A stretch of 64,000 nt of DNA. Origin: a virus. Below, piece by piece: positions 1 through 39,108 of the stretch (the stretch's first letter is position 1; each line of letters opens with the position of its first letter). The translations under genes were made by a program, and so were the position numbers. The stretch lies in the IMG/VR virus record IMGVR_UViG_3300006947_000003, positions 1 through 64,000 of that record. One strand, 5' to 3'. The notes under the pieces were generated by a model. The model saw nothing but the letters and a program-made list of their open reading frames with translations, did not search any database and was not told the DNA's origin.

Positions 1-774
1 AGTTATTACTTCTTGTGCTTTATTCCAATGCAACGGAGAGCGGATATATTCTAATGTTTTACCGATACCATCAATACTTAATTGAACAGACACACTATCG
101 AATTTTTTAAGTTTGTCAAACATCTCTTGATTATTAAAATTAGTACAGTTTGTTGTTAATGCTATATGGCAATCAGTTTTGCCTCCGTCTATTAGTTTAT
201 CTAACATTTGCGACACCTCTGGCATAATAGTAGGCTCGCCGCCTAAGAAACTTATAGAGCTTTCAGACGTTAACCCAGATATCAAATAATCTATGTTCGC
301 ATCGTCGACAATGTCGATGTTATTACCTTGATCCCAATGCCATTTAGATAGATACGGGTTTGCTTTAATTTCTTTCATTATTTGTGTACTGTACCGAGGC
401 GTACGCATTCTACATTTTAAGTTACATAAATTACTAGCACGAATATCTAAGTCTAACGGTTTGCCTAGTTCAGTGCCATTGACAATATCTAATTTCGGAC
501 TGCCGTGGTTTTCGTATTTCTTTTGGAACTCTTGTCGGGTACTTTCGGTACCAGATTCTTCTAGGTTCCAACAACCTTTACACCGATCAAGTTTTTCACC
601 TGCTAACATTCGTCGTCTAACATCTTGGTAGTAATCACTTCGCCAGTGTTTTTCAAAATCTAGAGAGTCTGGAGTATGTTCTTTTAATTCTTCTAGGCTA
701 TGACAACATAGCCGAGGTCCGTCATTTGGTTGAACGTACTTGTGTATAAATGGTGCATAACAAATATTACTCAC
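1..774 (-). CDS. Radical SAM protein with N-terminal twitch/SPASM-like Cys domain (partial, runs off window; CxxxCxxC motif reads CxxxCxxR)
   Basis: Not in the ORF track; manual translation from GTG at 774 gives MSNICYAPFIHKYVQPNDGPRLCCHS...LDIRASNLCNLKCRMRTPRY...FLGGEP. Same architecture as the neighbouring rSAMs. Confidence 0.85.
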   Translation of the reverse strand, partial: MSNICYAPFIHKYVQPNDGPRLCCHSLEELKEHTPDSLDFEKHWRSDYYQDVRRRMLAGEKLDRCKGCWNLEESGTESTRQEFQKKYENHGSPKLDIVNGTELGKPLDLDIRASNLCNLKCRMRTPRYSTQIMKEIKANPYLSKWHWDQGNNIDIVDDANIDYLISGLTSESSISFLGGEPTIMPEVSQMLDKLIDGGKTDCHIALTTNCTNFNNQEMFDKLKKFDSVSVQLSIDGIGKTLEYIRSPLHWNKAQEVIT

Positions 775-1993
775 CTAGTAACTCCGATGCCCACGGATAC
801 ATATCTCTATATTTGACTGGATTGTTAAAGTCCCAAAGGTTAACATTATTGTGTAACTCTATACGTTCGCGTTCGTTTATTTCTCTAACGTTTTGTTTTA
901 ATCGTTGGGAAATCGTAAAGTAATCAAAGTCTAAATCTAAATCTAAATCTAATGATCTAAGGTCCATGCTGTCTAATTCATCAATTAGTTCAGTTCTATA
1001 TTGTAATGGTATTAATTCCCATTGAAGATAAGATGGCGTTCTTACTTCGTTATAACTTACATTATTAGTAACGGTTTCTTCTTTAACCCATTTAAGAAAG
1101 TCAGCCAGCCCTAACATATTCAATTGACTCCAACAAGGAGTTATGCTAGTTTCCATATTATGTTCTCTTAGTTTTCTATAGTTTCTTTTTAATGTATTCC
1201 ATTTAACTGGAAACCGCTGATACTCTATCCATTTGTCAGGCCCATCGATGCTACAGCCTACTTCGCATCGATCAAACTTTTTAAGTATTTCTAATACACT
1301 AGTTTTTACTGTAGTACAATTTGTTAAGAAATATATGTATAAGTTAGTTCTTCCAGCATCTATTAAGTTTAACATTAGTTCTTCTATTTCGGGCATGAGA
1401 AACGATTCGCCACCAGCAAATTTTATTTCTCTTATACTATCATTGGCCATTATAAATTCAAACAATCCGTTAATTGGATCTATATTGCCTAAGTCTTTGT
1501 AAAAGTCTGCTTGTTGACCATCCCAGTATTCTTTCGACTGTTGTGTTTGCCCTATTGCTCCTGCCTTAGTTGCCGCTATTATATTTTTTGCTATTTGATC
1601 ACTATTACCGGAGTAACACATTTTACATTGTAAGTTACATTTATTTGTAAGTCGAACATCTATTATTTCTAATACAGGAGGGTCTTCCGGGAGTACATGT
1701 CGATATTGATTTACATATTTTTTATTTTCGTGGAGTCTTGAACTAACTAGATTGTTATCTTCTTCTGCCCAGCAATTAGAACAATTAGCCGGCCTTTTAT
1801 CTTCTAAGAATTCTTTTCGTATACGAACTAACTCACTATCATTTTGGAACCAGTTATCTGACTTATTAAACAACTCACCTTTGTGACTTTGTTTTTGTAT
1901 ACAGCAAGACCTATACCCTGGTTTTGTGTCTCCGGAGGTGTGTTCAAAATAAAGTTCTCTAAATGGCACATAGCAAAAGTTCTTTCGTTCCAT
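767..1993 (-). CDS. Radical SAM protein, N-terminal twitch/SPASM-like domain
   Basis: CYVPF..SCC..CSNCWAEE..SSR N-terminal domain; CNLQCKMC; AGGES; SIDG...YQRFP. Confidence 0.9.
   Translation of the reverse strand: MERKNFCYVPFRELYFEHTSGDTKPGYRSCCIQKQSHKGELFNKSDNWFQNDSELVRIRKEFLEDKRPANCSNCWAEEDNNLVSSRLHENKKYVNQYRHVLPEDPPVLEIIDVRLTNKCNLQCKMCYSGNSDQIAKNIIAATKAGAIGQTQQSKEYWDGQQADFYKDLGNIDPINGLFEFIMANDSIREIKFAGGESFLMPEIEELMLNLIDAGRTNLYIYFLTNCTTVKTSVLEILKKFDRCEVGCSIDGPDKWIEYQRFPVKWNTLKRNYRKLREHNMETSITPCWSQLNMLGLADFLKWVKEETVTNNVSYNEVRTPSYLQWELIPLQYRTELIDELDSMDLRSLDLDLDLDFDYFTISQRLKQNVREINERERIELHNNVNLWDFNNPVKYRDMYPWASELLGE
930..952. repeat. In-frame hexamer microsatellite (TCTAAA)x3 + TCTAA encoding LDLDLDLD
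   Basis: Read directly from the sequence, inside 767..1993. Confidence 0.7.
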
Positions 1994-2739
1994 TAATCAA
2001 AACCCCAATGGCGTTCGTGACACCACCAACATTCTGTGTGGCAATGCGTAGTAAAATTGTTTGTTAGTACTGAGTCAAAATTTTCACAGCTTCTAGTGAT
2101 TAACATCAGTGTTTGGCGTAAGTCAAACATATCGTATAGTTCTGCTACGCCTTTTTTATCAATATTAGTTAACAATGATATACTAGTCATATTCCCCTTT
2201 TTAACCCCGTTGTCTTTTGTTTTTCCGATTTGCCAATAGCCGTCAGTATTCCAAAAGTAAGGATGTTCAATACTAATCGGATCAGTACCGGGGCGGTCTG
2301 CTTCAGGTCCTTCTAGTAATTCCGTTTTTGAATTATAAAATTGTAAGTAAACTGACGGTGGTGGGTTTTTATTTATACCAGTAAAGTATATATCAAACGG
2401 TATACGCTGATGAGTCTCATATAAATGTATGTCTTGTTCTTGTTCATATACTCCGTTGTCTGGAGATTGTTTAACAGCATGTGGTAATATATTTACTCTA
2501 GGAAAGTGAGTTTTCATCCAGAATATAACTCTAGTAGAAAACTCTCCATGGTACGGCTTTGCCCAGTCGTTAAGTGTTATAGGAAGTATAGCTGTTTTGA
2601 GTTTGTTAAGTGTTATATGATTACATAGCATATAGAAAACTATAGCACTATCTAATCCCCCCGACAGTTTAATTCCGACTGTAGAATGAGTATCATCAAA
2701 ATCAATTAAAATATCAGATTGGGAAGTAGAAATAAACAT
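1993..2739 (-). CDS. PP-loop ATP pyrophosphatase, QueC-like
   Basis: KLSGGLDSA PP-loop; C-terminal TRSCE...HCHTECWWCHER Zn-binding-type Cys cluster. Confidence 0.7.
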   Translation of the reverse strand: MFISTSQSDILIDFDDTHSTVGIKLSGGLDSAIVFYMLCNHITLNKLKTAILPITLNDWAKPYHGEFSTRVIFWMKTHFPRVNILPHAVKQSPDNGVYEQEQDIHLYETHQRIPFDIYFTGINKNPPPSVYLQFYNSKTELLEGPEADRPGTDPISIEHPYFWNTDGYWQIGKTKDNGVKKGNMTSISLLTNIDKKGVAELYDMFDLRQTLMLITRSCENFDSVLTNNFTTHCHTECWWCHERHWGFD

Positions 2740-2771
2740 ATAATTACTTATTTGTTTTTATCTGTAGGTTG

Positions 2772-3164
2772 TTACCTAGTGGTTGTTTCTGGGTTCTTAC
2801 CTTGGTAATCTTTAATAGCTGATTTGATTGCGTCTTCGGCTAATACACTACAATGAATCTTAACAGGTGGCAGAGCAAGTGACTCAACAATATCCATGTT
2901 CTTAATATCTGTTGCTTCTTGTATTGTCATACCCTTGACCCAAGTAGTTAACAAGCTACTGGACGCTATGGCACTACCACAGCCATACGTTTTAAATTTA
3001 GCATCTTCAATGATACCGTCTTTAACTTTAATTTGAAGCTTCATCACGTCGCCACAAGCAGGAGCACCTACCATGCCAGTTCCGATAGACTTATCTGTCA
3101 TATCAAATTTACCTACGTTCCTTGGGTTGTTATAATGATCTAAAACTTGTTCTGAATATGCCAT
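2772..3164 (-). CDS. iscU: Fe-S cluster assembly scaffold IscU
   Basis: YSEQVLDHYNNPRNVG, GAPACGDVM, KTYGCGSAIASSS, LPPVKIHCSVLAEDAIK; GGAGG RBS upstream. Confidence 0.97.
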   Translation of the reverse strand: MAYSEQVLDHYNNPRNVGKFDMTDKSIGTGMVGAPACGDVMKLQIKVKDGIIEDAKFKTYGCGSAIASSSLLTTWVKGMTIQEATDIKNMDIVESLALPPVKIHCSVLAEDAIKSAIKDYQGKNPETTTR

Positions 3165-3181
3165 TCTATGGCCTCCGTTAT

Positions 3182-3421
3182 TTAACTACCGTAACTATTA
3201 CGGTTGCGTTCTATTGTATCAAAGATATCTTGTACTGTGTTGATTGCTCTAGCTTCGGTATCACTAATAGTACAATCCCACTTATCTTCTACTTCAATTA
3301 TTAATTCAATAATAGTAAAATCATCTGAGCCCAAGTCGTCTATTAGATGTGACTCTGGTTTAATTAACGCTTCGTCTACATCTAGTTTATGACTCAAGTA
3401 ACTTATTAACTTATCTATCAT
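3182..3421 (-). CDS. Acyl carrier protein-like (canonical DSL serine replaced)
   Basis: Acidic 79 aa; PESHLIDDLGSDDFTIIELIIEVEDKWDCTISDTEARAINTVQDI aligns with AcpP DLGADSLDxVEL...ITTVQ. Confidence 0.8.
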   Translation of the reverse strand: MIDKLISYLSHKLDVDEALIKPESHLIDDLGSDDFTIIELIIEVEDKWDCTISDTEARAINTVQDIFDTIERNRNSYGS

Positions 3422-3438
3422 ATTAATAACTCCCTCTT

Positions 3439-3467
3439 ATTATACTATATTTATTGGCAATTGTCAA
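3439..3467 (-). promoter_or_regulatory. Consensus sigma70 promoter for ACP-like/iscU
   Basis: TTGACA (3467-3462), 17 bp, TATAAT (3444-3439), then a GAGGGAG RBS. An ATAAATA late-type box lies in the spacer. Confidence 0.85.
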
Positions 3468-4880
3468 CTATGCTGGTCCGTTTACAACTCCGTCAATATC
3501 AAAGTTTAACACTTCTGATTGGAAATCGTTTTTACATCTATCATAGTACCTAGTTAAATGTGGTTCGATAGCCAGTGTATCAGTTCCGCGCACTTCGTCT
3601 AATGCCATTTGATGTCTAACAAACTGTAGCATTAATCGTTTCTTCTTGCCTTCTGTTATACCTTGAGTAGTGTGGCCGCTGATCTCTCTGTTTAATTCAG
3701 AGCGAATAGTACGGAACCATTGTATTTCTTTCTTATTCATCTTGAACTCTACGATACATTCATCAAGCAATTTGTGTATTAATTCTTTATGATCATCATC
3801 TAACCAACAGATTGATAAGAATAACGGATCCACAATAGGTAAAAATGATATACCTCTATGCTTTGGAAAGTATCGTCTATATCCTTCTAGGAACCATTTC
3901 ATTGTATCTTTTATTTGGAATATACCTTGGGGTTGTACAACCGAACCGATACCTGCCCAATGCAGATTTGGAAGTTTAAAAACTTCGTGGAAGATTTGTT
4001 CATGTCTATCCCATTTAGTTCCGTGACGTAAATATTCTTCTAACTCACCAGTTCCGTCAAAGCTAAAGTTAATTGTAACGTGTTTGAATTGACTAATAAC
4101 TTTTTCAATACGTTTGTTCCAACTTGTAGCATTTGTAATTAAGTGTAAGAAGATATTTTTAGCATGTCCAGAGTCTACTACTTTTTGTAATACTTTATGT
4201 ACACGTGGATCAATAAGTGTCTCACCACCTGACATCTTTAACCACTTAACATCTGTTAAGTCAATATTTGATACTGGGTCAAATTTAGGATCATCATAAT
4301 CAATTTGCTCTGCCCATTTACGAACAGTTGCTGACTTAGTTACTGAATCCCAATATGTCCAGCCTTGTAAAACCTTGTTGTCTAACACTTCCTTTTCAAT
4401 CTCAGAAGACCAAGTACTATTGCATGAGCGACATTTTAAGTTACATAGTTTACTAGGACGTAAGTCAATATCAATCGGCTTGCCCCATTTGTTACCTTTT
4501 ACAACATCAAGACCTAGGTGTTCGTAGTTCTTGTGGCTTGTTTCTTCGTGGTCAGCGTACTTGCTGATGAAGTGCATTCTGTTTGATTCTTCCCAAACTT
4601 TCTCACGTTCATATCTACCACAGTACCAGTCACACGCCTTAGGCATTTTGCCATCTAAGAATTCTTGTCTAATGCCTTGCATGGTATCACCTACCCAGAA
4701 CTCGTCTAGTTGTTCTCCTAGATCCTGATCCATGTCGTGCCAGCGTCCTACGATTTTGCTCATACAACATAGCTTGTGTGCCCTGTTATTTGCATTCATG
4801 TAAGCGTGAAAGAACGGGGCCGGACAGAACTTCTCATTTGGAAGTTCTTTCATTAATTGTTTTGCTTCTTTATCGTCCAT
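3468..4880 (-). CDS. Radical SAM protein, N-terminal twitch/SPASM-like domain
   Basis: CPAPF..LCC..CDWYC; CNLKCRSC; SGGET. Confidence 0.9.
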   Translation of the reverse strand: MDDKEAKQLMKELPNEKFCPAPFFHAYMNANNRAHKLCCMSKIVGRWHDMDQDLGEQLDEFWVGDTMQGIRQEFLDGKMPKACDWYCGRYEREKVWEESNRMHFISKYADHEETSHKNYEHLGLDVVKGNKWGKPIDIDLRPSKLCNLKCRSCNSTWSSEIEKEVLDNKVLQGWTYWDSVTKSATVRKWAEQIDYDDPKFDPVSNIDLTDVKWLKMSGGETLIDPRVHKVLQKVVDSGHAKNIFLHLITNATSWNKRIEKVISQFKHVTINFSFDGTGELEEYLRHGTKWDRHEQIFHEVFKLPNLHWAGIGSVVQPQGIFQIKDTMKWFLEGYRRYFPKHRGISFLPIVDPLFLSICWLDDDHKELIHKLLDECIVEFKMNKKEIQWFRTIRSELNREISGHTTQGITEGKKKRLMLQFVRHQMALDEVRGTDTLAIEPHLTRYYDRCKNDFQSEVLNFDIDGVVNGPA

Positions 4881-5845
4881 TATAGTTTTAACTCTCCTCG
4901 CCTAACGGCTTTAAGTGCCTCCCGTATGCCCACTTTAACATAGCTTTCATCTATTAAAAAATATTCAAAGTCTTTGTGGTATCTCGGTAGCATTGTAACA
5001 TGTAAGCAGTTTGTCTCTTGCATACTGTATTTAGCACATAATTGTTTGTACCAGTCCAAATACTTATTAGCCTGCCAATCGGGGCTAAAGTTATCCATTT
5101 GATGTAATGCTAGTTGACAGTTACTTAGAACTAGGTGTCCGTAGCTGTTTTGTTGTGCTATTGGCATCATATCGTTTTTTGGATAGTTGCTCCAGCGTAC
5201 ACCAGTTCGCATATTACCTAACCCTATCCCCTTGCTCAGGCTAAAACTAACTTCAGTAATCGCTGGGTGGTTAAGGTCAAATTCCATATCGAAGCAAGTT
5301 CCAAACCAAGCACAGTCTAGTATTACAGGTACATCTAGTGCTAAACATCTATCTAATAGCTCTTTCATTTTAGGGTGTTCACTGCCTGTGCCGCAGAATG
5401 GATGTGATAATACTACCCAGTCTCCGGGCTCAATTGGATCAGCCCATTCACCGTTTGCTTGTTTACCGGTGTGTTCATCTAGCCATGCATGGTTCTTATA
5501 TACACGTCTGTGATAAGCATATTCGCCTCTAAACAAGCGTAAACGTCTACCAGCATACCTGAAGTAAGCCTCATCAAAACTTTGTGTAGTTCCAATAATG
5601 ATGTCCCTTCTTAAATATCGTTTGCTGTGAAACTTACAGCCGTCTGTTATCTTGTTTTGTTTAGATGAATATATCCAATCAATAAATCGTTCAATGTATT
5701 GATCTTGTACTTCAAAGTACCCGGGCTCACTTAGCCATTGTTCCCATGGTGCTTCTTTTAAACTTTTTTGGAAAGCTGGATCGTATATAGCATTGTGTCT
5801 GTTCCTAAAAACTTTGCCTAGTAGTTCATCAAATTCTAATGTCAT
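4880..5845 (-). CDS. PLP-dependent enzyme (aminotransferase class I/II-like fold)
   Basis: ILDCAW (DxA) and SFSLSKGIGLGNMRTG (SxSK...RxG) motifs. Confidence 0.7.
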   Translation of the reverse strand: MTLEFDELLGKVFRNRHNAIYDPAFQKSLKEAPWEQWLSEPGYFEVQDQYIERFIDWIYSSKQNKITDGCKFHSKRYLRRDIIIGTTQSFDEAYFRYAGRRLRLFRGEYAYHRRVYKNHAWLDEHTGKQANGEWADPIEPGDWVVLSHPFCGTGSEHPKMKELLDRCLALDVPVILDCAWFGTCFDMEFDLNHPAITEVSFSLSKGIGLGNMRTGVRWSNYPKNDMMPIAQQNSYGHLVLSNCQLALHQMDNFSPDWQANKYLDWYKQLCAKYSMQETNCLHVTMLPRYHKDFEYFLIDESYVKVGIREALKAVRRGELKL

Positions 5846-7424
5846 TGTCTTTTACCCATTGTTGTATAAATTCATTAATCTCAGGACAAGTTTCTGCAAA
5901 GTTCTGTCCTCTACTCTCATCTAGCTTTTTTGTGTGGTCTATAAAGTTAATTAGTGTATGACTAGTATCTTCAGAGTCCATAAATTCTAACATCTTGTTT
6001 AAGTGGTATTCTGTTTCTTCAAATAATACTTGAGGATCTTTATCCCATGATCTAACTATCTTATGTCCTATTGGCGAGTTTATATTTTCTAACGAATAGT
6101 CTTTTGGTAAACCCATACACCAATCTTTAAACCAACCGTTGATCCAAGTTGTGTATCTTTCTCTTACATACGCTTTGGCCTTAGGCGGTAAACTAGTAAC
6201 ACAATAATGTTTTGGATTGTGTACAGGGTGTTGTGTAAACCACGGAGTCTTTGCTAAACGATTTAACTTGCTCCAGTTGTTTTCAATATCCCATTCAATA
6301 ATTCCCATAGGTTCTAGTACATTAAGTATTTGAAATGTAAATGTAAACCACGGGTTAACATTATCAGGTGACTCCTTGTCTAGCTTTATTATATTTTTTT
6401 CTATCATTGGCCATTTGCTAGGGTGCCTAATATATTCATCTAGCTCTCCAATACCATCAATACTGCCACCTATATCAACACGTTTAAAATGTTTCCAATA
6501 TGTAAACAACTGTTGTGGAACATTAGTCCAGTTAGTATTATAATCTAACGTAATGTTCTCTGCTAGTCCTTGATCTATTAAGTGTTCTAATAGTTCGTAT
6601 TGCTTTTGATTAATCAACGGCTCACCGCCCGATATATGTATTAAACTAATACCTGGAGCATGAGTTTGAAAGTCTTTCCATAAGTTTGTATGGTCGTACC
6701 AATCAAAAGGGTTCCAATCTTCTTCTTGTTTCTTAGTAACTTCGTAGTCATCTACAACACTAGTAACTACAAATCCACCTGCGGCCTTTACTCTGCCTTT
6801 AACTTCTTTAAGGTTAATTCGATAGTCACCGCTTTTAAATCTGTCTAGTACTAAACTTTTATGTTCTTTGTACCACTGAGTTGACTCTGTGGGATTACAC
6901 ATACGACAAACAAGATTACATAAGTTACTAAAACGTATGTCTGCTTCAAACATAGGTGTAGCATCTACGTCTATTGTGCCGTCAGGTTGTGTTACTTTTA
7001 AACTATCCTCAAAATCAAAACGTTCATGTAAACGTCTAACATCTAGTCTACGTCTTGACTGTTGTCCCACTGAATCTTCTTTGTTACAACGCTGACATAC
7101 TTCGGACTGTTCGCCTTGAAGCATTTTACTTCTTACATCTTTTAGCATACTACAGTTTCTAGTTTCTGCTAATGAATGAGTATCAGCTCTCATAGCCACA
7201 CCGTTATCATCTCTTAATGTGCCTTTAGTTTTTCTATGAGTGTTTGCCTGTACACACATGCGATAGTCGCCGTTATTGTTTATGCTAAATGACGTCCAAG
7301 GTACAGGACACCAACTAGGATTGTCCTTCTGGAGAGTTTGTAAATATTGTTCGCTTTTGGGCAGTCCCTCTCCAGAGACATATCCTGTACCGCCAATGAA
7401 TTTTGTTTTAGGTGTGTTATTCAT
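5829..7424 (-). CDS. Radical SAM protein, N-terminal twitch/SPASM-like domain
   Basis: CPVPW..CQRCNKED..SRR; CNLVCRMC; SGGEP; YIRHPSKW. Confidence 0.9.
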   Translation of the reverse strand: MNNTPKTKFIGGTGYVSGEGLPKSEQYLQTLQKDNPSWCPVPWTSFSINNNGDYRMCVQANTHRKTKGTLRDDNGVAMRADTHSLAETRNCSMLKDVRSKMLQGEQSEVCQRCNKEDSVGQQSRRRLDVRRLHERFDFEDSLKVTQPDGTIDVDATPMFEADIRFSNLCNLVCRMCNPTESTQWYKEHKSLVLDRFKSGDYRINLKEVKGRVKAAGGFVVTSVVDDYEVTKKQEEDWNPFDWYDHTNLWKDFQTHAPGISLIHISGGEPLINQKQYELLEHLIDQGLAENITLDYNTNWTNVPQQLFTYWKHFKRVDIGGSIDGIGELDEYIRHPSKWPMIEKNIIKLDKESPDNVNPWFTFTFQILNVLEPMGIIEWDIENNWSKLNRLAKTPWFTQHPVHNPKHYCVTSLPPKAKAYVRERYTTWINGWFKDWCMGLPKDYSLENINSPIGHKIVRSWDKDPQVLFEETEYHLNKMLEFMDSEDTSHTLINFIDHTKKLDESRGQNFAETCPEINEFIQQWVKDNDIRI

Positions 7425-8748
7425 GTCGTGCTAATTCTGGAAATGTTGTTCGCCAATCTGTATTCCTTATTGAATCCATTTTGTCTAGGTATTCTATAGT
7501 ATGTTCCCATTGGTGGCTGTTATCTTCTTTCATCATATGGTTAGCTACTGCTCTCAATCTATTATGGTTGTTAACACTTTTGCCGCCGCTTGGCTGGTGG
7601 TGGGTATTAATCCATTTTGTAATGTTAGTATATCGTACTAGTATTTCTTCTTTAAGTTTTTTAGGTAATACTTGTACACTTAACAACGGGGGTTGCCATA
7701 GTATGTGTATACCAATCATACCACCGAAGTTAGGATATACTGTAATCTTCTTAAAGTTTTGATTCATTTTCCATACAATGAAGTCTGGTAAATGCCAAGC
7801 ATTAAGAGCCTGTGCTGTACAATCTATTTCTACCTTTACGTTATTACTTAACTGATCGTGCCAGTGTAAACTGTCTAACTGATCCTGCCACGTACCCGGG
7901 TATCGTATGTAAGTATAACGGTCGTGTGTTCCATCCATGCTTAAATGCAATGTAACACTTTTGAAGTGAGTATAAAGTTCCTTCAACTCTTCATCTAATA
8001 TCTGTCCGTTGGTATTGAATCTTAAATCAATATGTCCGGCATTATTAGTATCAACACAATCCCGTAGGAATTTTTTAAACTCTGGGTTAACTGTTGGCTC
8101 GCCACCTATGATGTAAACACTATATAATTTTTCTATATTTTCGTTTAAACTATCCCAATAGGTACGACTTTTCTTATACCAGTTATAAGCACCAGCTTCA
8201 TTTTTATTCCAATATGTTTGACTGTCTACTTCAGAACTTATATCTAACTTCTTTAACTTGAGCCAATCGGGTATCCACAAGCTCGAGTCGCTCGGGTTAC
8301 ACATAACACACGCTAGGTTACAAGCATTGCCGAGTTTCATATCAATGTAATGTATGCCATAAGGCATACTTCCATCTGAATTCATTTTGTCTACAATTTG
8401 ATTGTAGTCTAACTGTTCGGACCATAAATCATTTTCCCACATACGTTTTGATCTATAACCTGACTCTTCTTCTTTATAACATTTACGACACACGTTCGGG
8501 CGTTCGCCATTTAACATTCCCTGACGCAACGTTTTCATATACTTTGTATTCCAAAAATCTTCAGGAGCATCTCGATGAAGTTCTACGAAGCTACCATCAT
8601 CTTTCCTGTTACATCCGATGTATTGTTCATCGTGAGTTGAATCAGAATTTGCTGTACAGCATATTTGCATTCTCCCATCAGTCCTTGTACTAAGGTGTAT
8701 GAAAGGCAATATACAAAAGCCGTCTATATCTTTAATGAGTTTAGCCAT
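7417..8748 (-). CDS. Radical SAM protein, N-terminal twitch/SPASM-like domain
   Basis: CILPFIHLSTRTDG..ICC..CRKCYKEE..SKR; CNLACVMC; IGGEP; close paralog of 12083..13582. Confidence 0.92.
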   Translation of the reverse strand: MAKLIKDIDGFCILPFIHLSTRTDGRMQICCTANSDSTHDEQYIGCNRKDDGSFVELHRDAPEDFWNTKYMKTLRQGMLNGERPNVCRKCYKEEESGYRSKRMWENDLWSEQLDYNQIVDKMNSDGSMPYGIHYIDMKLGNACNLACVMCNPSDSSLWIPDWLKLKKLDISSEVDSQTYWNKNEAGAYNWYKKSRTYWDSLNENIEKLYSVYIIGGEPTVNPEFKKFLRDCVDTNNAGHIDLRFNTNGQILDEELKELYTHFKSVTLHLSMDGTHDRYTYIRYPGTWQDQLDSLHWHDQLSNNVKVEIDCTAQALNAWHLPDFIVWKMNQNFKKITVYPNFGGMIGIHILWQPPLLSVQVLPKKLKEEILVRYTNITKWINTHHQPSGGKSVNNHNRLRAVANHMMKEDNSHQWEHTIEYLDKMDSIRNTDWRTTFPELARHE

Positions 8749-9896
8749 TTTACTAATACCGGGTCTAATGTTTTGTATGATGTGTTTCTAACAGTATCAT
8801 AGTTGATTGTTGTTTCGTAAAGTAAATCATTTTTTCTTTCTAATTGATTGTTTGATAATCTATTTGCTTTGTGGTAAGCAACAAAGTTTTCCATGTCCTC
8901 TACTTGTCTGTGTCCTGTTGCTCTAAATCTTTCTAATCCTAAATCTAATATATGATCTGGTAAAAATTCGGGAGATAATTCACATCCTGGCGGTGAGAGT
9001 TTGAAATCAAAGTTTACATAATAGTCGCTGTAGTTAACAAGTTGATCTAAGTTAAGCCAGTTGTATGCTTGTATCACACAACTTAATTCTACATCGACCC
9101 AACTGTATTGTTTAATTTTTAGTAATCGCTTATCTAGTTGTTCCCACGAAAACGGATGACGAATATATTCATATACTTCTCCAGTTCCGTCAATGCTAAT
9201 AGTTAATTTTACATGTTTAAACTGTTTCATTTTTTCTAGTATAGTTTTAGAAAACTTTGTACCGTTGGTAGTGACATTTAATTCTAAACCTTTGGCTAAA
9301 TCTTTCTCAATAGCAAAGTCTAAAATCTCTAAAAAGTCTTTTGACAAGAAAGGTTCTCCGCCTGTTACTTTGAGAATATCTATACCGTCAGTTAACACAT
9401 CTTTAGCATATTGTTTTTTTTCTATTGAATAGTAATTTTTATGACGTGTGTGTCTTTTTAATGTTGTCGGCAATGGTAATTCTTTTTCTCTAAACTTATC
9501 AACAGTTTTCCATATCTGATCAGAATTATGTTGACTACACATTACACATTGTAAATTACATCGATTATCAAATTCTATATCTAAATATTTTAATGTAGGT
9601 TTATCGATGTGAAAATAGTTTTTAAACTGCTTGTTATATCCTTGCCTTTCGCTGAACACTCCAGCATCTTCCTTAACCCAGCACACATCACAAATCGCTG
9701 GCTTCTCCCCGTCATTTAATTGATTTCGTAACTGACTTGCTTTAGTTCCTGCGAATGCATCTTTGATGGATGTATCGTTAGCAGTTGTGTTGTCATATGG
9801 TATGCCAGAATTACAACATGGGTTATATGTATTAGGTAAACTTAAATTAATTTGTACCCATGGCATTATACAAAATGTTTTTGAATCAGTGTTCAT
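8724..9896 (-). CDS. Radical SAM protein, N-terminal twitch/SPASM-like domain
   Basis: CIMPW..PCC..CDVCWVKE; CNLQCVMC; TGGEP. Start taken at the ATGA overlap (9896); 9917 is an alternative. Confidence 0.9.
   Translation of the reverse strand: MNTDSKTFCIMPWVQINLSLPNTYNPCCNSGIPYDNTTANDTSIKDAFAGTKASQLRNQLNDGEKPAICDVCWVKEDAGVFSERQGYNKQFKNYFHIDKPTLKYLDIEFDNRCNLQCVMCSQHNSDQIWKTVDKFREKELPLPTTLKRHTRHKNYYSIEKKQYAKDVLTDGIDILKVTGGEPFLSKDFLEILDFAIEKDLAKGLELNVTTNGTKFSKTILEKMKQFKHVKLTISIDGTGEVYEYIRHPFSWEQLDKRLLKIKQYSWVDVELSCVIQAYNWLNLDQLVNYSDYYVNFDFKLSPPGCELSPEFLPDHILDLGLERFRATGHRQVEDMENFVAYHKANRLSNNQLERKNDLLYETTINYDTVRNTSYKTLDPVLVKWLNSLKI
8859..8936. repeat. 78-bp exact direct repeat, copy 1 (copy 2 at 10022..10099)
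   Basis: Base-by-base identity between tandem rSAM paralogs, encoding LERFRATGHRQVEDMENFVAYHKANR. Confidence 0.9.
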
Positions 9897-18803: not shown

Positions 18804-18811
18804 TTTGTTTC

Positions 18812-19477: not shown

Positions 19478-19478
19478 T

Positions 19479-25661: not shown

Positions 25662-25662
25662 A

Positions 25663-27337: not shown

Positions 27338-27355
27338 AATGTTATTATACCTTCT

Positions 27356-27685: not shown

Positions 27686-27686
27686 G

Positions 27687-28418
27687 TTATTTCCTGTAAT
27701 GCCTATGTGTATAATGTTGCCAATCGTGTTGTACACCTACAGGCCAAAATGTATTCGCATGTACTCGATCAACTCGGACATCATGTCCTTCTGTAATTAG
27801 TTCGTTATAAACCGCCGCAACATAATATTCTCCATATTCTGGTGGCTTACTTAATAATGTGTTAACACTATCGTTAAATACTTCACCGTTATGGAAATGA
27901 TAAAATCCAGTGGTAGCATTGTTCGTAGGAAGTCCTGCTGTTGTTTTTTCCGTACATAGATGAACCTTATCAGTATCACCTTCGGTATGAGCAAAACTAT
28001 GTCGTTCGGTATCTGTGTGATTATAAATTGCTATGTAACTAGACTCGGGGTTATTAGTTATTTTCTTTTGTAGGCTAGTAGTATCCCATTCAAACACTTG
28101 ATCGCAATTAACACTAATAAAAGGGTTGCTACTAGTCATTACTTCGCTACATTTTTGTAATGTTTCAGCCGCTCCTTGTGTTGTTTCCTCTATTGCTGTA
28201 ATACTACCCATACTTTCTAACAATGGTTTCATAAAAGGATGATCTTTAAGATGTTGCATTTTTACAACAAAATGCCAATCAGCGTCAGGCCACTCTAAAC
28301 TGTAATACACATTTTGTATCATAGTCGTGTTGCCAGTTCTAATTAAAGGCTTTGGGTAAAGATGTCCTTGTTCCTGGAAACGTGATCCAAGCCCTGCCAT
28401 TGCTACTACTATATTCAT
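27687..28418 (-). CDS. Sugar-phosphate nucleotidyltransferase (NTP_transferase family)
   Basis: VAMAGLGSRF..PKPLI, TQGAAET, NCDQ, EK..ATTGFYHF, EYYVAAVYN. Confidence 0.85.
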   Translation of the reverse strand: MNIVVAMAGLGSRFQEQGHLYPKPLIRTGNTTMIQNVYYSLEWPDADWHFVVKMQHLKDHPFMKPLLESMGSITAIEETTQGAAETLQKCSEVMTSSNPFISVNCDQVFEWDTTSLQKKITNNPESSYIAIYNHTDTERHSFAHTEGDTDKVHLCTEKTTAGLPTNNATTGFYHFHNGEVFNDSVNTLLSKPPEYGEYYVAAVYNELITEGHDVRVDRVHANTFWPVGVQHDWQHYTHRHYRK

Positions 28419-32369: not shown

Positions 32370-33189
32370 GGGAACCTCCGCTGTAATGGTTTTCTTCTCG
32401 TTTTAATTTTATAGGCATGTATGTTTGCTTAGGTTTAATATGGTTTGCTTTTATATGAAATGATAAAACGTGTTCAGGCCCGTATGCTTCTTGCCTGCCT
32501 AAATCAAACCATTCTCGTTTATACTTTGGAATACAACTATAAAAATCACAAATACGATCATAATCAAAACTAGGAGCTGACCAGTAAACATCACTACATC
32601 TGTATCTATGAAAATCGTCAAACGTTTGATGTATTACATTAACGTTGCCTAATGCTATTGGTGACAACCTATATTCTTCTTCAACAATCTTGCCTAATGC
32701 TATTGGCTGAAAGCGTTCTCCTTCAGCCGTGATGTCTAATGCTGGCGGTGACATCTTATATTCTTCTTCAACATAGTTGTCAAATCTCATTCTAACACAC
32801 AAATCATATTCCATAGCAAACTCGCGTTCGTACTGTTGCTTTAAATGGCAAGCCATCATTACACCATAAAACTGGCTATGATAATTAGGGTCAAATACTG
32901 CCCATTCGTGTTGATCCTTACCTCTGTTAACAAAGTCAATGGGATCTTCAACTAATATTTTTTTAGGTTTTAATAATCTCTTAACTATATTAAGTTCTGT
33001 ATTACTGTGAACTTTTTCTTCGTTATCGTTATTAGCGTGTGCTACTTTATTTGGCGCTGTAGAGTTAGTCCACGTATGTACAAAATAGTCTACTTCGTCG
33101 GTGAGTGGGTCAAACATTTTCTCCCAACTAGGAATACATTCTTCGTATCTTCCTCTTAACTGGCCACTGACACAAACTGCTATTTTCAT
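32356..33189 (-). CDS. Putative glycosyltransferase-like protein (IAxCxSGQxR family), with internal duplication
   Basis: IAVCVSGQLR, FVHTW, SQFYG, YDLCVRMRFD, GPEHVL. Confidence 0.6.
   Translation of the reverse strand: MKIAVCVSGQLRGRYEECIPSWEKMFDPLTDEVDYFVHTWTNSTAPNKVAHANNDNEEKVHSNTELNIVKRLLKPKKILVEDPIDFVNRGKDQHEWAVFDPNYHSQFYGVMMACHLKQQYEREFAMEYDLCVRMRFDNYVEEEYKMSPPALDITAEGERFQPIALGKIVEEEYRLSPIALGNVNVIHQTFDDFHRYRCSDVYWSAPSFDYDRICDFYSCIPKYKREWFDLGRQEAYGPEHVLSFHIKANHIKPKQTYMPIKLKREENHYSGGSHEIT
32645..32773. repeat. Interleaved 17-bp direct repeats within a CDS
   Basis: ttgcctaatgctattgg at 32645 and 32690; tatattcttcttcaaca at 32670 and 32757. Confidence 0.8.
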
Positions 33190-33626
33190 TCTATAACTCC
33201 GATGTAATCACTACAAATACCGTAGCAATCTTTATATATTTTTAATTCTTCTGCTGTAGGTCTTTCCATATGACAAACAACTGACTTAGGACCATACTTG
33301 TTATAATCTGAATGTGTCCAAATATAACCATGGTTTGTTAATGTAACATCGTCTCCTTGGTGCCAAAAACAATTAATGCCTTCGTTGGTCATATACTCTA
33401 GTGCTTGTATGTCTTTAGCGTGGCACCATAACCCCTTCATTTTTAGCATATTCTTGTTAACTGATGCTATAGGGCTATCGTGTCCTAGTTGAACCATACC
33501 GTTGCTATACCACACATCTATTTCAACATCATATCCTTCTGCTAGTGCTTCAAAAATATAATGTGGGCTGTTTTCCCTTTTAGGATTTGGCCCAAATAAA
33601 TTACCTCTATGACTTATCTTTCTCAT
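33186..33626 (-). CDS. Glycerophosphodiester phosphodiesterase-like (PLC-like) protein
   Basis: ISHRGN..ENSP..DVEIDVW..LGHD..WCHAK..GICSD. Confidence 0.75.
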   Translation of the reverse strand: MRKISHRGNLFGPNPKRENSPHYIFEALAEGYDVEIDVWYSNGMVQLGHDSPIASVNKNMLKMKGLWCHAKDIQALEYMTNEGINCFWHQGDDVTLTNHGYIWTHSDYNKYGPKSVVCHMERPTAEELKIYKDCYGICSDYIGVIE

Positions 33627-34372
33627 CCTACAAACGCCTTTTCTAAAACAAACGTTCCTTGTTCTTTAACACTACCTTCTTTCCAGCCGCGTCCTTCTAA
33701 ATATTCTTTCATCTCCATATTAAATGCCATGCTACCACATAGCATAACTTTATCTGTTTCTGGAGTTGCTTCGCTAAACAACGTTCCGTCTTTAATTAAA
33801 TTTGTTATTCTTCCTTTATGTTTGTGTGTAAGTCCCTCGTAATTTAAAGGTTCTTCACGTGTAAGTGTTGGAATATATGTACACTTGCCCATATTTAATA
33901 TACTAGCATAAGACTCTTGGGCGTTGTGTGTGCCTGTTGTCCAAGTAACATATACATTATCATAATATTCAAACGTCTCAGGGTCTCTTAATATACTCAT
34001 GAACGGAGCAATACCTGTACCGGTTGCCATTAGCCATAAGTTACCACCAAGTGCTATATTGGAAGTTGTTAATGTTCCTGTAGGCTTCTCACCTACAATT
34101 AATTCATCACCCACTTTAATATGCTGTAGTTTACTTGTTAATGGACCGTCGGGTACTTTGATACTATAGAATTCTAAAAACTCGTCATATGGCCCACTAC
34201 AAATACTGTATGCCCTCATTATAGGTTTGTTCTTTTGTAGTTTTTCTGACCAGTTGTCCAACCCAATCATTACAAACTCACCTGCTCTAAATCTAAAAGT
34301 ATTAGGTCTCTCTGTTCTAATTTTAAACAATGTGTCCGTAAAGTGTTCGACTCTAGTTACTTTTACTATCAA
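33623..34372 (-). CDS. fpr: Ferredoxin/flavodoxin-NADP+ reductase
   Basis: FRAGEFVMIGL, MRAYSI, YSIKVPDGPLTSKLQ, ATGTGIAPFMS, MLCGS, FVLEKAFV; probable TTG start at 34372 with GGAG RBS. Confidence 0.93.
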   Translation of the reverse strand: MIVKVTRVEHFTDTLFKIRTERPNTFRFRAGEFVMIGLDNWSEKLQKNKPIMRAYSICSGPYDEFLEFYSIKVPDGPLTSKLQHIKVGDELIVGEKPTGTLTTSNIALGGNLWLMATGTGIAPFMSILRDPETFEYYDNVYVTWTTGTHNAQESYASILNMGKCTYIPTLTREEPLNYEGLTHKHKGRITNLIKDGTLFSEATPETDKVMLCGSMAFNMEMKEYLEGRGWKEGSVKEQGTFVLEKAFVG

Positions 34373-34860
34373 AATAAATGTCTCCATTGTATATTAGGAT
34401 GTTGGTGTTCAATAGCTTTCATTTTTTCTTTCCATGTATCCATTAATGCTCGATCCCATTTAGTTTGTTGTGTTTTGTCCATATCCCACGGCGTAGGTTT
34501 AGTCCAAGACCAGGTTTCGTCTTTCTCTATACGATTTTTTAAACAGTCAAAGCCTACTGTATGAATAATTGTGCCACCTAGTTCAACAGCATATTTCATT
34601 TGTAAAGTTCCTGTAATATCAAAATCGTCCGCTTCTTTAGGCACAATAAAGTTTTCTTTATCATTCCATTTAGTAATAATTTTGCCTTTGTATTCGTCGC
34701 TTAATAGTAATGCTGGTTCTTTGTCTGCTACCGCAATAAAATCTAAATCATTAAATCGTTTGTATTGGCGTTTTGTTCCTAGTTTAAAATCATATGGATA
34801 GTTACAAATATGTAAATTATCTTTTAAACTAACACCATTGCCTATACATAAGATTTTCAT
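34369..34860 (-). CDS. Hypothetical protein (IGNGxS motif, sialyltransferase/Maf-like fold possible)
   Basis: CIGNGVSL..DFIAVAD..TG..AVELG..VGFD. Confidence 0.5.
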   Translation of the reverse strand: MKILCIGNGVSLKDNLHICNYPYDFKLGTKRQYKRFNDLDFIAVADKEPALLLSDEYKGKIITKWNDKENFIVPKEADDFDITGTLQMKYAVELGGTIIHTVGFDCLKNRIEKDETWSWTKPTPWDMDKTQQTKWDRALMDTWKEKMKAIEHQHPNIQWRHLF

Positions 34861-35777
34861 TTTATGTCACGCTCGGTTAACATAACACCGTACCTAGTAG
34901 GATTAGTGTAAACCATTTTAAACCATTTACTAGCATCAGCATCTAAGTCAGCAATTCTAAATTGTAAATCGTCTCTTAATTTAACACCATATTCAAGTAT
35001 CGCTTCTTTGCGTTTTGTTTCGTCATCATATTTAACTAATACTTCTTGTACCATTTTCTGCATGTAGTCGTAGTCAGCAATTAATGTATGGTCTTTTCTT
35101 TCTACATTAGTTTCGTATGTTCCCATTCTTGCTCCTAGTACTGCCCAGTCGCCGTATTCTATATCAACGCCAACGCTACACCATATTGCTAATCTGTGTA
35201 AATTCTTATAGTGGTTCTTTTCTAAGTAATCCCATTTGTCGGGGAGCATGCCTTGATCTAAACTTAACTTAATGCCTTCTCGATATCCGCCCCTAAACGC
35301 TTGTTCAGGACTTCCGTTAACACAGACATCACTCATAGTATCTGCCATTTGGAAGTATGTAACCATCCAACAAAAGTCTACAGCGTCTTGTTCATTAGTT
35401 GATTTCTCGTGACTCTCCATATTAGTAATGATGTGTTTAGGCCAAAGTTTAACGCCTCCGTTTCCGTATGCTAAACCGTTGATAATATTATGTCCACACC
35501 AACTGAATACAAAGTCCTTTTGTGCTTCGTCATCTATTTCTAATACTTCATTAAAAAACTCTTCTCTTACTCTGTTGTCGCCGTCAATAGTAAATACCCT
35601 GTCAGTATCACTAATTTGTCCTGCTTCATTGTGCGCGGCATCAAACCCCTTAACTCCGTGTACTCGTTTTGCCCATGGGCATTTACTTTTTAAATCAGCC
35701 CAGTTCTTTTCGGCATTGGGTTCGTCGTATGAGATATACACGACATCGAAGTCACTTACTTTATATTGTTTAATCAT
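34857..35777 (-). CDS. Glycosyltransferase-like (GT-A type) phage protein
   Basis: YISYDEPNA, RVHGVKGFDAAH, IDGDN (DxD), NGLAYGNGGVKLW, AFRGGYREG. Confidence 0.6.
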   Translation of the reverse strand: MIKQYKVSDFDVVYISYDEPNAEKNWADLKSKCPWAKRVHGVKGFDAAHNEAGQISDTDRVFTIDGDNRVREEFFNEVLEIDDEAQKDFVFSWCGHNIINGLAYGNGGVKLWPKHIITNMESHEKSTNEQDAVDFCWMVTYFQMADTMSDVCVNGSPEQAFRGGYREGIKLSLDQGMLPDKWDYLEKNHYKNLHRLAIWCSVGVDIEYGDWAVLGARMGTYETNVERKDHTLIADYDYMQKMVQEVLVKYDDETKRKEAILEYGVKLRDDLQFRIADLDADASKWFKMVYTNPTRYGVMLTERDIK

Positions 35778-37939: not shown

Positions 37940-38768
37940 AAAGTTCTATAAACCTATCATAATTTTTTTCTATTTCAAATTTGTTTAGTAAGTGTATGTT
38001 TGTGTCTTTTAATCTTACAGGTCCTTCAGTTGTATTAATTGTTATACTTCCTTTGTTTATATCTATCACACTTTCGGGCGGGTAACTGTTAATCTGTCTT
38101 GTAGGTAATGGCTTTAACCATCCATCAGTATATCCGTTCATAATATGTGAGGCTATGGCAGCCGTTATATCGTTTCTATAAAATGTATACGGGCTATTAT
38201 ATGTTGTACTATAAAAATCGTTATTTTCTTTGATTTCTTTTGCTAATGTAAACCATTGTTCTGTTTGTTCGCATTTTCTAAAATAACATACAGTAAACCA
38301 ATGTATACTAGGGTAGCCATCTGTGATAACTTTTTCGTAAATGTGTTCTTGTTGTTTTCCGGGAAGTCTACTATTAATATTCATTAGCATAGGTTCAACA
38401 TTTCCCCACACGTTATTTAAAACTGAATTTTGTATTAAGTAGTCACTATCGATTAGTATTGTTTCGTCATATGGTGATAAATCATATGCTAATAACCGAT
38501 CTAAATTATACCAAGTAATTTGTTCACGTTTACCGTTAATTATTACACCTCTGCCATTGACTACTTCGACATTGTCTAAGTATATCACCTTATCCCAAAC
38601 ATCACTAGCATTGTACAATGTATTGTCGTTGTAATCAGCTTCTAGTGTAATTAAGGAAACAGGTATATCAAGAAAATGCTTAGCCATAGTCGCGGCTACT
38701 TCGGCTTGTTTTATGTAATTAAATTGCTCGTTATTTTTAGCAAATATTATTAAGCCTTTAGTCGTCAT
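37932..38768 (-). CDS. Glycosyltransferase-like (GT8-type DxD)
   Basis: LSPYDETILIDSDYL, YRND, HLLNK. Confidence 0.65.
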   Translation of the reverse strand: MTTKGLIIFAKNNEQFNYIKQAEVAATMAKHFLDIPVSLITLEADYNDNTLYNASDVWDKVIYLDNVEVVNGRGVIINGKREQITWYNLDRLLAYDLSPYDETILIDSDYLIQNSVLNNVWGNVEPMLMNINSRLPGKQQEHIYEKVITDGYPSIHWFTVCYFRKCEQTEQWFTLAKEIKENNDFYSTTYNSPYTFYRNDITAAIASHIMNGYTDGWLKPLPTRQINSYPPESVIDINKGSITINTTEGPVRLKDTNIHLLNKFEIEKNYDRFIELYG

Positions 38769-39108
38769 ATGTTAATATCTCTTCCACACTTCTTGCTGTT
38801 ACTATTTTTTGTTGCTCTGCCTGAGCTCTATTTTGTTCTTGAACGTAAGTATCTAATATTAATTTCATAAAAGGTCCAACTTCTATTTCGATTAGATTTT
38901 CATTTCTGTCATCAATGACAGCTTTTTTGTAGTTTTTACGTTCGAGCAAATCTAGTAAGTTTAGCAATGTAGGATTGATATTAAATAATCCGCCGTTATA
39001 ACCGATAGTGAGCCTTTCATTTTTAAGCTCTTTTAGTAGTTGTAATTGGTTATTTTGGACTTGTCGATAATTTGCGTTTTTGAATAATTCTGATGTTTCT
39101 TTGTTCAT
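38758..39108 (-). CDS. Hypothetical protein
   Basis: 116 aa; first gene after the promoter at 39162-39190. Confidence 0.6.
   Translation of the reverse strand: MNKETSELFKNANYRQVQNNQLQLLKELKNERLTIGYNGGLFNINPTLLNLLDLLERKNYKKAVIDDRNENLIEIEVGPFMKLILDTYVQEQNRAQAEQQKIVTARSVEEILTYDD

Follow-up and report, generated by a model that had tools for sequence, protein, structure and literature searches.

The window analysed here is a 64,000-nucleotide stretch, the first 64 kb of the 122,450-bp viral contig IMGVR_UViG_3300006947_000003 in the IMG/VR database. Its first 25 kb carry an array of twelve genes for radical S-adenosylmethionine (rSAM) enzymes, interleaved with genes for iron-sulfur (Fe-S) assembly, S-adenosylmethionine (SAM) synthesis and candidate tailoring enzymes. 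CheckV estimates that the contig represents 34% of a genome, and the source is best explained as an uncultured, marine, T4-like giant phage, with the window forming the left end of a fragment that covers about one-third of the genome. Every gene from 1 to 59 kb lies on the minus strand, and the array belongs to an accessory island whose position downstream of baseplate and fibre genes, reported in an initial annotation of this DNA, was confirmed. No close cultured-phage relative was found in the collection: megablast with positions 1-20,000 returned no match among cultured-phage records, and tblastn with two of the array proteins (r6 and r8) gave only weak matches, to Vibrio KVP40-like phages and Ralstonia phage RsoM2USA.

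The twelve minus-strand open reading frames (ORFs) within 1-24,967 match the Pfam rSAM model PF04055 with E values of 1.7e-14 to 0.002, seven of them above its gathering score of 29.5 bits. A thirteenth rSAM gene, on the plus strand at 59,298-60,455, scores 26.8 bits; all 13 ORFs of the window match at E≤0.002, and a fourteenth lies beyond it, at about 73.4-75.2 kb of the contig. Numbered r1 to r13 by position, 12 of the 13 contain the CxxxCxxC motif, the exception in this assembly being r1. Family match and motif thus bear out the counts first proposed, twelve in the first 25 kb and 13 in the window.

All-versus-all BLAST separates these proteins into two families, one of eleven (r1-r9, r11 and r12) and one of two (r10 and r13). 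Members of the larger family are 21-53% identical to one another, and eight of the eight scanned (r2, r3, r4, r5, r6, r8, r9 and r11) score 225-419 bits against the NCBIfam model NF033640 (N_Twi_rSAM), above its cut-off of 170 and across nearly the whole model; r1, r7 and r12 lay outside that scan and were assigned by BLAST and alignment. With 34.6 and 16.9 bits, r10 and r13 are not members. The eleven are, as predicted from these matches, old paralogues of one catalogued family.

From the contig end inward, the N_Twi-type genes are r1 (1-774; PF04055 28.1 bits; 24-33% identical to its paralogues by BLAST), whose C-terminus is cut by the contig end, r2 (767-1993; 225.4 bits on NF033640; motif CNLQCKMC), r3 (3468-4880; 231.6 bits), r4 (5829-7424; 321.1 bits), r5 (7417-8748; 370 bits), r6 (8724-9917; 257.4 bits), r7 (9893-11128; 53% identical to r6), r8 (12083-13582; 418.7 bits), which belongs to the most conserved orthogroup, r9 (13893-14927; 285.3 bits), r11 (22462-23685; 229.9 bits) and r12 (23645-24967; PF04055 25.6 bits; 21-23% identical to its paralogues). 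The motif of r1 reads CNLKCRMR, with arginine (codon CGT at 403-405) in place of the third cluster cysteine. Two marine DNA runs that belong to other studies, X5 and X6, have A at position 405 and therefore read TGT (Cys), so that the loss is either a strain variant or an assembly error.

These proteins share a layout in which an N-terminal cysteine-rich domain, C-x17-CC-x~40-CxxC, is followed by CNLxCxMC and a GGE motif. The full N-terminal pattern precedes CNLxCxMC in nine of the eleven paralogues; r4 and r12 have a single cysteine at the CC position. Across 107 sequences, this domain has C16, C76 and C79 without exception and C34 in at least 90%, and weak SPASM Pfam matches fall at residues 12-127. 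The second type, r10 (14875-15957; PF04055 28 bits) and its paralogue r13 (26% mutual identity), has the rSAM motif at residue 18 and a cysteine-rich stretch at the C-terminus. The best explanation is that N_Twi enzymes carry a putative auxiliary-cluster domain in front of the catalytic barrel and that the r10/r13 type carries one behind it.

Six genes among and beyond the rSAM genes encode candidate helpers. An IscU Fe-S scaffold (2772-3164; NifU_N 175.4 bits) retains Cys37, Cys62 and Cys105 (ACGD, GCGS and HCS), the Asp and His contexts and LPPVK. An Nfu-type Fe-S carrier (13582-13908; PF01106 81.7 bits) has a CSGC (CxxC) motif. The SAM synthetase MetK (19736-20827) matches three Pfam domains at 110-192 bits, and the adenine phosphoribosyltransferase Apt (25663-26217) scores 172.8 bits on NF002634 (cut-off 170) and 166.7 on NF002636 (cut-off 125). 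The predicted identities of these four are secure. The fifth, a 79-residue protein (3182-3421) related to acyl carrier proteins (ACPs), scores 23.8 bits on the PP-binding model PF00550 (cut-off 20.8); its motif DLGSDDFT has aspartate where the phosphopantetheine serine is expected by alignment to the AcpP motif, and the predicted product is ACP-like, not a demonstrable carrier. An Fpr-like reductase (33623-34387) has NF008178 as its best match (116 bits, E 1.6e-33, cut-off 390), with Pfam FAD and NAD domains at 20.8 and 21.0 bits, just below their cut-offs. As the initial annotation had it, helper genes lie interspersed among the rSAM genes in co-directional operons, gene by gene and often with overlapping stops and starts.

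Candidate tailoring enzymes occupy the same operons. A 321-residue protein (4880-5845) is predicted to be a fold-type I pyridoxal phosphate (PLP) enzyme of the class I/II aminotransferase-like kind. It had no family match and none in sequence or profile searches of the Protein Data Bank (PDB); Foldseek with its AlphaFold2 model (pLDDT 90.7) gave at least 500 PDB matches at E≤1e-3, and all among the matches listed are PLP enzymes of this fold, the nearest being aminotransferases, CobD, HisC and MppP (TMq 0.5-0.62). K205 (in SLSK), D177 and R213 are invariant in 20 sequences; by position, K205 would be the Schiff-base lysine and D177 the aspartate that pairs with the pyridine nitrogen. A 248-residue PP-loop ATP-pyrophosphatase-like protein (1993-2739; SGGLDS motif) ends in a cysteine cluster; S-G-G-x-D-S and C218, C237 and C240 are invariant in 29 homologues, and PDB profile matches to NAD synthetase (5.9e-4) and asparagine synthetase (4e-3) support the predicted label at superfamily level. 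A NodU/CmcH/TobZ-type carbamoyltransferase (20951-22465) is well matched by Carbam_trans_C (179 bits) and Carbam_trans_N (130.6 bits).

Two further partners are less sharply defined. A 451-residue protein (17051-18406) consists of six N-terminal repeats of about 30 residues and a methyltransferase-fold-like C-terminal domain, for which Methyltransf_31 is an Atlas lead and PDB profile search returned only thermospermine synthase (E 0.14). A 221-residue transferase-like protein (18812-19477), GT-A-like by motif only, has an Atlas lead (0.87), nothing in PDB sequence or profile searches of its family, and a paralogue at 34857-35777 with a weak match to glycosyltransferase family 2 (GT2; E 0.025). 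The tailoring enzymes named at the outset therefore fared unevenly: the carbamoyltransferase, the PLP enzyme (by fold) and the PP-loop ATPase (by superfamily) were upheld, the SGNH, glycosyltransferase and methyltransferase labels are weak, and for the sulfotransferase-like label no match was found in Pfam, PHROG or relaxed Pfam searches. As a side observation, the helical repeats of the 451-residue protein vary from about two to about ten among phage homologues (L004, L016 and L023), and were not seen in its Bdellovibrionota homologues (L086 and L095).

Several of these genes are physically coupled. In the window, the r4, PLP-like and r3 genes overlap end to end. At two other viral loci (L072 and L073), a single 820-residue ORF joins an r4-type N_Twi domain (residues 4-482) to a PLP-like domain (506-820) that is 46% identical to the window protein, and a 703-residue ORF at L023 has the opposite order, PLP followed by rSAM. 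r4 is the orthologue of the rSAM half of these fusions, with 40% identity to the fused domain of L073. A 735-residue frame at L103 fuses a transferase-like protein to an r8-type N_Twi enzyme, and a 1,098-residue ORF at L004 contains two transferase-like domains, about ten repeats and a methyltransferase-like domain. The fusions argue that parts of the cassette act on one substrate, and the PLP-like enzyme is a likely functional partner of the N_Twi enzymes. Prediction of an r4-PLP-like complex gave a score of 0.00, which is no verdict, neither for nor against binding. Separately, five loci (L008, L021, L028, L072 and L073) have frames of 840-1,416 residues with two tandem N_Twi domains, showing that in some phages the paralogues are fused to each other.

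To locate promoters, we searched the whole contig for the exact consensus TTGACA-N16-18-TATAAT. Six perfect sigma-70 promoters were found in the 122 kb, whereas 200 shuffles gave 0.26 on average and never more than 3. Four lie inside the island, all on the coding strand: at 3467-3439 (18 nt before the ACP-like and IscU genes), 20954-20926 (99 nt before metK), 27372-27344 (7 nt before a gene for a RuBisCO-like protein, RLP) and 39190-39162 (54 nt before the island's first gene past the fibre genes). Three of the four thus stand directly before a helper gene or the RLP gene. The T4-late octamer TATAAATA precedes the fibre genes and r13, and none of the array genes. Because sigma-70 promoters are present and the octamer is absent before array genes, the island looks like a set of early operons read by host polymerase. 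r13, read as 59256-60455, is the sole plus-strand gene of its neighbourhood; its place beside a gp25-like baseplate gene, and the TATAAATA found 35 nt upstream of it, suggest possible late expression, in contrast to the array. Concerning the host, the consensus promoters argue only against those with other promoter types. The two remaining perfect promoters lie outside the window, at 68526-68554 and 107341-107370 of the contig, each 7-21 nt before a co-directional gene.

Relatives of the N_Twi array genes are widespread in viruses. When the paralogue alignment was used for a pattern scan of IMG/VR, at least 540 viral relatives emerged, of which 80 loci were kept. Each locus of about 20 kb holds one to eight N_Twi genes: one in 4 loci, two in 28, three in 19, four in 9, five in 6, six in 9, seven in 4 and eight in 1. 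When whole records were searched, 20 of 20 long viral records had 2-15 copies above the cut-off, 15 of them in a complete 328-kb genome with terminal repeats. r8 reaches 76% identity in viral contigs, and its orthogroup extends to 3,542 protein clusters at E≤1e-10 in a large protein collection, none of them informatively named; for four r8 relatives whose clusters were looked up, the names were limited to 'hypothetical protein' or a generic rSAM term.

A second scan, with one genome per prokaryote species, gave 291 relatives of r8. Of these, the best 80 come overwhelmingly from Bdellovibrionota (55-66% identity) and include Mb-scale contigs and chromosomes. The two sets of 80 loci share partners: r10 homologues occur in 71 viral and 36 genome loci, methyltransferase-like domains in 63 and 18, transferase-like proteins in 44 and 19, and carbamoyltransferases in 11 and 12; PP-loop homologues were counted in 34 viral loci and PLP-like proteins in 7 genome loci. 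NF033640 scored above its cut-off in 31 of 151 sampled Bdellovibrionota genomes and in none of 14 control genomes, and five Bdellovibrionota genomes carry from several to about nineteen N_Twi genes each above the cut-off.

In a quick maximum-likelihood tree of r8 with 34 viral and 38 'bacterial' orthologues, all 34 Bdellovibrionota sequences form one clade (SH-aLRT 92) whose inner order matches taxonomy, and the N_Twi cassette appears to be vertically inherited in this phylum. The root of the tree is unresolved and no direction of transfer is given. Three of the four other 'bacterial' sequences, from metagenome-assembled genomes (MAGs) labelled Planctomycetota (L081), Acidimicrobiaceae (L116) and Rickettsiales (L147), nest within viral clades. 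A nearly identical viral contig stands next to two of them and a closely similar one next to the third, and these three are probably phage DNA misbinned into MAGs. The fourth, from Candidatus Dojkabacteria, stands alone on a long branch near the root.

Together, these results bear on the target of the pathway. Modification of virion proteins or their glycans, suggested initially, is disfavoured by the sigma-70 promoters, by the lack of a T4-late motif before array genes, by the presence of fibre homologues beside arrays in only 2-3 of the 80 viral loci and by the cassette's occurrence on Bdellovibrionota chromosomes. The broader proposal of a multi-step tailoring pathway holds up as the most reasonable reading.

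From the gene identities, paralogy, promoters, distribution and fusions observed here, we infer a substrate class, an order of steps and a role for the helpers. Our favoured reading, offered tentatively, is an early-expressed radical tailoring pathway acting on a sugar-type substrate, with optional helper genes. The accessory island downstream of the baseplate and fibre genes would be read by host sigma-70 RNA polymerase in at least four long operons. Its core is a conserved multi-enzyme cassette common to hundreds of aquatic phage contigs and to Bdellovibrionota chromosomes: N_Twi rSAM enzymes, a second-type rSAM enzyme, the PLP-like, transferase-like and methyltransferase-fold proteins, the PP-loop ATPase and the NodU/TobZ-type carbamoyltransferase. 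These enzymes may work in sequence on one carbohydrate or nucleoside-sugar scaffold, with hydrogen abstraction by an rSAM enzyme leading to oxidation, epimerisation or deoxygenation of a position, amination of the carbonyl by the PLP enzyme that is fused or adjacent to it coming next, and carbamoyl, methyl and glycosyl transfer following. IscU, Nfu, the ACP-like protein, MetK, the Fpr-like reductase and perhaps Apt would raise the supply of Fe-S clusters, SAM and electrons for the heavy rSAM load, and would still need host IscS, chaperones, flavodoxin or ferredoxin, and nucleosidase. The hints of a sugar-type substrate are the carbamoyltransferase, nucleotidyltransferase, PMM-like and cupin genes and a cassette of RLP, cupin and nucleotidyltransferase, together with the presence of BlsE, viperin-like enzymes and MoaA among the nearest structures. 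The characterised carbamoyltransferases NodU and TobZ act on sugars. The nearest logic is that of aminoglycoside and deoxysugar biosynthesis, where a sugar carbon is oxidised or deoxygenated by an rSAM enzyme and then aminated by a PLP enzyme, before carbamoyl and methyl groups are attached.

Several observations weigh against this reading. The PLP enzyme resembles amino-acid aminotransferases (HisC, CobD and MppP), and no sugar aminotransferase is among the matches listed. Near viral arrays, PMM-like genes occur in 1 of 80 loci, nucleotidyltransferases in 1 of 80 and homologues of the island's DxD-motif paralogues in 7-9 of 80. Among the 126 Bdellovibrionota neighbour proteins, GT2 is a hint of sugar chemistry as the named family seen most often apart from rSAM, yet it numbers only 4. 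Motifs, two DUF6071 matches and weak leads are the basis of the labels SGNH, glycosyltransferase and methyltransferase. Searches of open PubMed Central (PMC) and bioRxiv texts found neither the term NF033640 nor a functional description of N_Twi arrays, and the functions given to the cassette enzymes are predicted ones. As for expression, two RNA-library runs (X15 and X16, whose identical figures probably make them one data set) contain short contigs identical to 3016-13622; DNA carry-over is possible in such libraries, and the matches are therefore not taken as evidence of transcription.

The helper genes raise a further difficulty. The initial annotation had described the pathway as largely self-supporting, which overstates the case: the 122-kb contig has no match to PF00266, PF00258, PF00111 or PF01048, that is, no cysteine desulfurase, flavodoxin, 2Fe-2S ferredoxin or 5'-deoxyadenosine/5'-methylthioadenosine nucleosidase or phosphorylase, absences that hold for the contig, about 34% of the genome, and not for the whole phage. 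The PLP-like protein was considered as the missing cysteine desulfurase and rejected, since PF00266 gives no match and its motif and fold are aminotransferase-like. Nor do helpers accompany rSAM arrays in relatives, an outcome listed in the initial annotation as one that would refute its proposal. In counts that are lower bounds, most records being fragments, 3 of 20 array-bearing viral records contain IscU, 1 of 20 contains MetK and 0 of 5 contain Nfu, and all three are lacking from the complete 328-kb genome, which has 15 N_Twi genes. Within 10 kb on either side of r8 orthologues at 80 viral loci, IscU was found once, Nfu twice, and MetK, Apt, Fpr and RLP not at all. Apt was found in 0 of 80 N_Twi viral loci and 0 of 80 RLP viral loci. 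With helpers so sporadic, the link between helpers and array is one of position only. Their pattern is that of optional auxiliary genes; the supply-chain idea is reasonable, but the chain is neither complete in the contig nor conserved.

The same counts favour an alternative that we consider doubtful, in which there is no dedicated supply chain and the helpers are independent auxiliary metabolic genes for host metabolism in an island of accessory genes. When the 80 viral loci with the closest IscU relatives were inspected, 77 had no N_Twi gene nearby and only three did. A gene for a T4 DenV-type pyrimidine dimer glycosylase (Pyr_excise, 63.8 bits) lies at 18399-18803, in the middle of an rSAM operon, so the island evidently mixes unrelated accessory genes, and the published view is likewise one of scattered auxiliary genes (Nishimura et al. 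2017, PMC5332604). Set against this are the gene-by-gene interleaving within the same four promoter-headed operons, the presence of 14 Fe-S/SAM enzymes in 122 kb, which makes a local demand plausible, and the fact that the 2017 paper drew the same link, in its treatment of a T4-like genome with 12 rSAM genes (PMC5332604).

An unlikely alternative is that the array matures proteins or peptides, by thioether formation, epimerisation or C-C linkage, with the fibres, the 451-residue repeat protein or a precursor peptide as substrate. Here the structural matches speak for the peptide alternative and against our favoured reading. The nearest solved relatives in a PDB sequence search are peptide maturases, 8vpo (1.9e-13) and SkfB (2.2e-12), and a Foldseek search with the r6 model (AlphaFold2, pLDDT 94.5) returned CteB and SkfB as top matches (E 5e-8 to 2e-7); anSME and EpeE are also among the best matches to maturases of peptides made on ribosomes and modified after translation (RiPPs). 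The PLP partner is of an amino-acid aminotransferase class, the 451-residue protein has six repeats whose number varies among phages, the island comes directly after fibre genes, and r13, which is preceded by TATAAATA, is a neighbour of gp25.

Several of these points lose force on closer inspection. The structural matches cover the common rSAM core only (TMq 0.32-0.40), and a search for a function-specific neighbour of the r6 fold gave nothing beyond that core. BlsE, viperin-like enzymes and MoaA are also among the nearest structures, and N_Twi enzymes are accordingly best described as predicted members of the SPASM/twitch-MoaA-viperin part of the rSAM superfamily. The scanned ORFs gave no match to PqqD or RiPP recognition element (RRE) types in a search with Pfam, which included no dedicated RRE models, and reading of the array's ORFs revealed no repeated small precursor-like frames. 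The scarcity of fibre genes beside viral arrays, the repeat-less Bdellovibrionota homologues of the 451-residue protein and operon promoters of sigma-70 rather than late type likewise argue against a peptide or virion substrate.

Modification of nucleotides or phage DNA, yielding hypermodified or chain-terminating nucleotides that protect the genome or interfere with replication of the host or competing phages, is very improbable: phages do use PLP and rSAM enzymes in thymidine hypermodification, viperin, MoaA and BlsE are near relatives (NCBIfam viperin_w_prok down to E 1.5e-10), the PP-loop ATPase has a C-terminal cysteine cluster like several nucleotide-modifying enzymes, and Apt, PMM-like and MetK genes lie nearby, but the viperin-type similarities fall far below family cut-offs, no DNA transglycosylase, hydroxymethylase or DNA kinase was seen in the one-third fragment (no search aimed at them was made), Bdellovibrionota carry the cassette on their chromosomes and appear to inherit it vertically, and eleven diverged paralogues poorly fit a single base modification.

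Giant T4-like phages and Bdellovibrionota are both invaders of Gram-negative cells. One could speculate, although we judge it improbable as a whole, that these phages and the predatory Bdellovibrionota use a radical-tailored sugar-type or nucleoside-sugar product at an early stage, so that the envelope of the victim is remodelled or disarmed or competitors are kept out, and that this phage has gone furthest in adding a supply of Fe-S clusters, SAM and reductant of its own. N_Twi arrays take up a large share of coding space in an abundant clade of giant aquatic phages, and the chemistry of the family is probably new radical enzymology leading to a new phage-made product. The system offers handles in the rSAM-PLP pair with its natural fusions, in clear early promoters and in a helper set that may aid heterologous expression of Fe-S enzymes.

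The remaining genes of the window form part of the same island or flank it. Two paralogous genes within the array encode unplaced proteins of 322 residues (11115-12083) and 294 residues (15950-16834), neither with a Pfam, relaxed-Pfam or PHROG match; PHROGs were uninformative for the interleaved unassigned genes generally. For the 322-residue protein, tblastn gave no alignment of at least 200 residues at up to 90% identity in 160 loci, and none at E≤1e-5 is among the matches listed for viral and genome loci. Next to r12 lies a gene for a PMM-like HAD phosphatase/mutase (24957-25661; PF03332 81.6 bits). Between 28536 and 39108 are about 17 accessory genes, including those for three proteins with GDS motif or DUF6071 matches (29.8 and 51.1 bits for two of the GDS-motif proteins), two paralogues of 240 and 277 residues, a GDPD-like protein of 146 residues (33186-33626), a 306-residue transferase-like protein and two DxD-motif paralogues.

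The RLP gene lies with those for a cupin and a sugar-1-phosphate nucleotidyltransferase-like protein at 26210-28418. RLP scores 109.9 bits on PF00016 and 135, 122 and 106 bits on the type III, MtnW and OiaX models, with every NCBIfam RuBisCO or RLP model below its cut-off; its active-site residues were inspected by eye. Among 80 viral loci that hold RLP relatives, nucleotidyltransferase-like genes occur in 77, GDPD-like in 65, cupin in 64, PMM-like in 8, N_Twi in about 10 and Apt in none. We had considered RLP and Apt as a salvage route for rSAM by-products; these companions, and the absence of Apt among them, led us to reject it, and RLP belongs instead to a separate cassette of sugar-nucleotide type.

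Two side observations concern the window as a whole. A fibre-like protein of 4,329 residues (42343-55332), with FG-GAP and CBM_5_12 matches, resembles six other ORFs of the contig, one in the window (40158-41630) and five at 89-112 kb. DNA run X5 contains a contig that joins position 209 to 19739 with six letters between at depth 83, a joint absent from the joint table; depth in this run is about 60 at both ends of 1-20000 and 40-45 inside. The cause may be a variant that lacks the 19.5-kb array and co-occurs with the main form, or else an artefact of repeats.

How the array compares with known systems depends on the level of comparison. The window paralogues match NF033640 at family level, that is, a bioinformatic subfamily itself defined from sequences. 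RiPP maturases (SkfB, CteB and the cyclopropyl synthase 8vpo) are the best solved matches, but only the rSAM core aligns (TMq 0.36-0.40) and the domain order is permuted; RiPP clusters also contain a recognition domain and precursor peptides, which were not found in the scanned ORFs of the window.

Sugar-tailoring analogues are BtrN with its aminotransferase, DesI with DesII, and carbamoylation by TobZ and NodU. The likeness lies in a twitch-type rSAM enzyme paired with or fused to a PLP enzyme, a NodU/CmcH/TobZ-type carbamoyltransferase and sugar-nucleotide genes nearby. The differences are that BtrN and DesII are not among the PDB matches listed, that the PLP enzyme is of HisC/CobD type and that the twitch-like domain is N-terminal here. 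The resemblance would therefore be one of analogy in pathway logic, not of membership.

Phage RuBisCO-like proteins have been described as a set of about 80 sequences of unclear function (Jaffe et al. 2019, PMC6389311). The window RLP resembles them in being a divergent, putatively form IV-related homologue on a myovirus-type contig, and appears to be set apart by its conserved cassette of nucleotidyltransferase, GDPD-like and cupin genes.

The closest published precedent is a T4-like marine viral genome of 183 kb with 12 rSAM genes together with an A-type carrier, cas4, grx and paaD; the same study reported IscU in six viral genomes and proposed that the Fe-S proteins encoded by viruses are what viral Fe-S assembly proteins serve (Nishimura et al. 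2017, PMC5332604). The array pattern itself is thus already in print, and the earlier statement that no characterised system is like this one holds for function and not for pattern. The section of that paper dealing with these genes does not name the rSAM family, partner enzymes, promoters or cellular counterparts. Relative to it, the window adds Nfu, the ACP-like protein, MetK, the Fpr-like reductase and Apt. What appears to be new here is this fullest predicted set of helpers, the four consensus promoters, the rSAM-PLP fusions in both orders and the transferase-like fusions, along with the grouping of all Bdellovibrionota sequences of the r8 tree into one clade and an RLP cassette set apart from the array.

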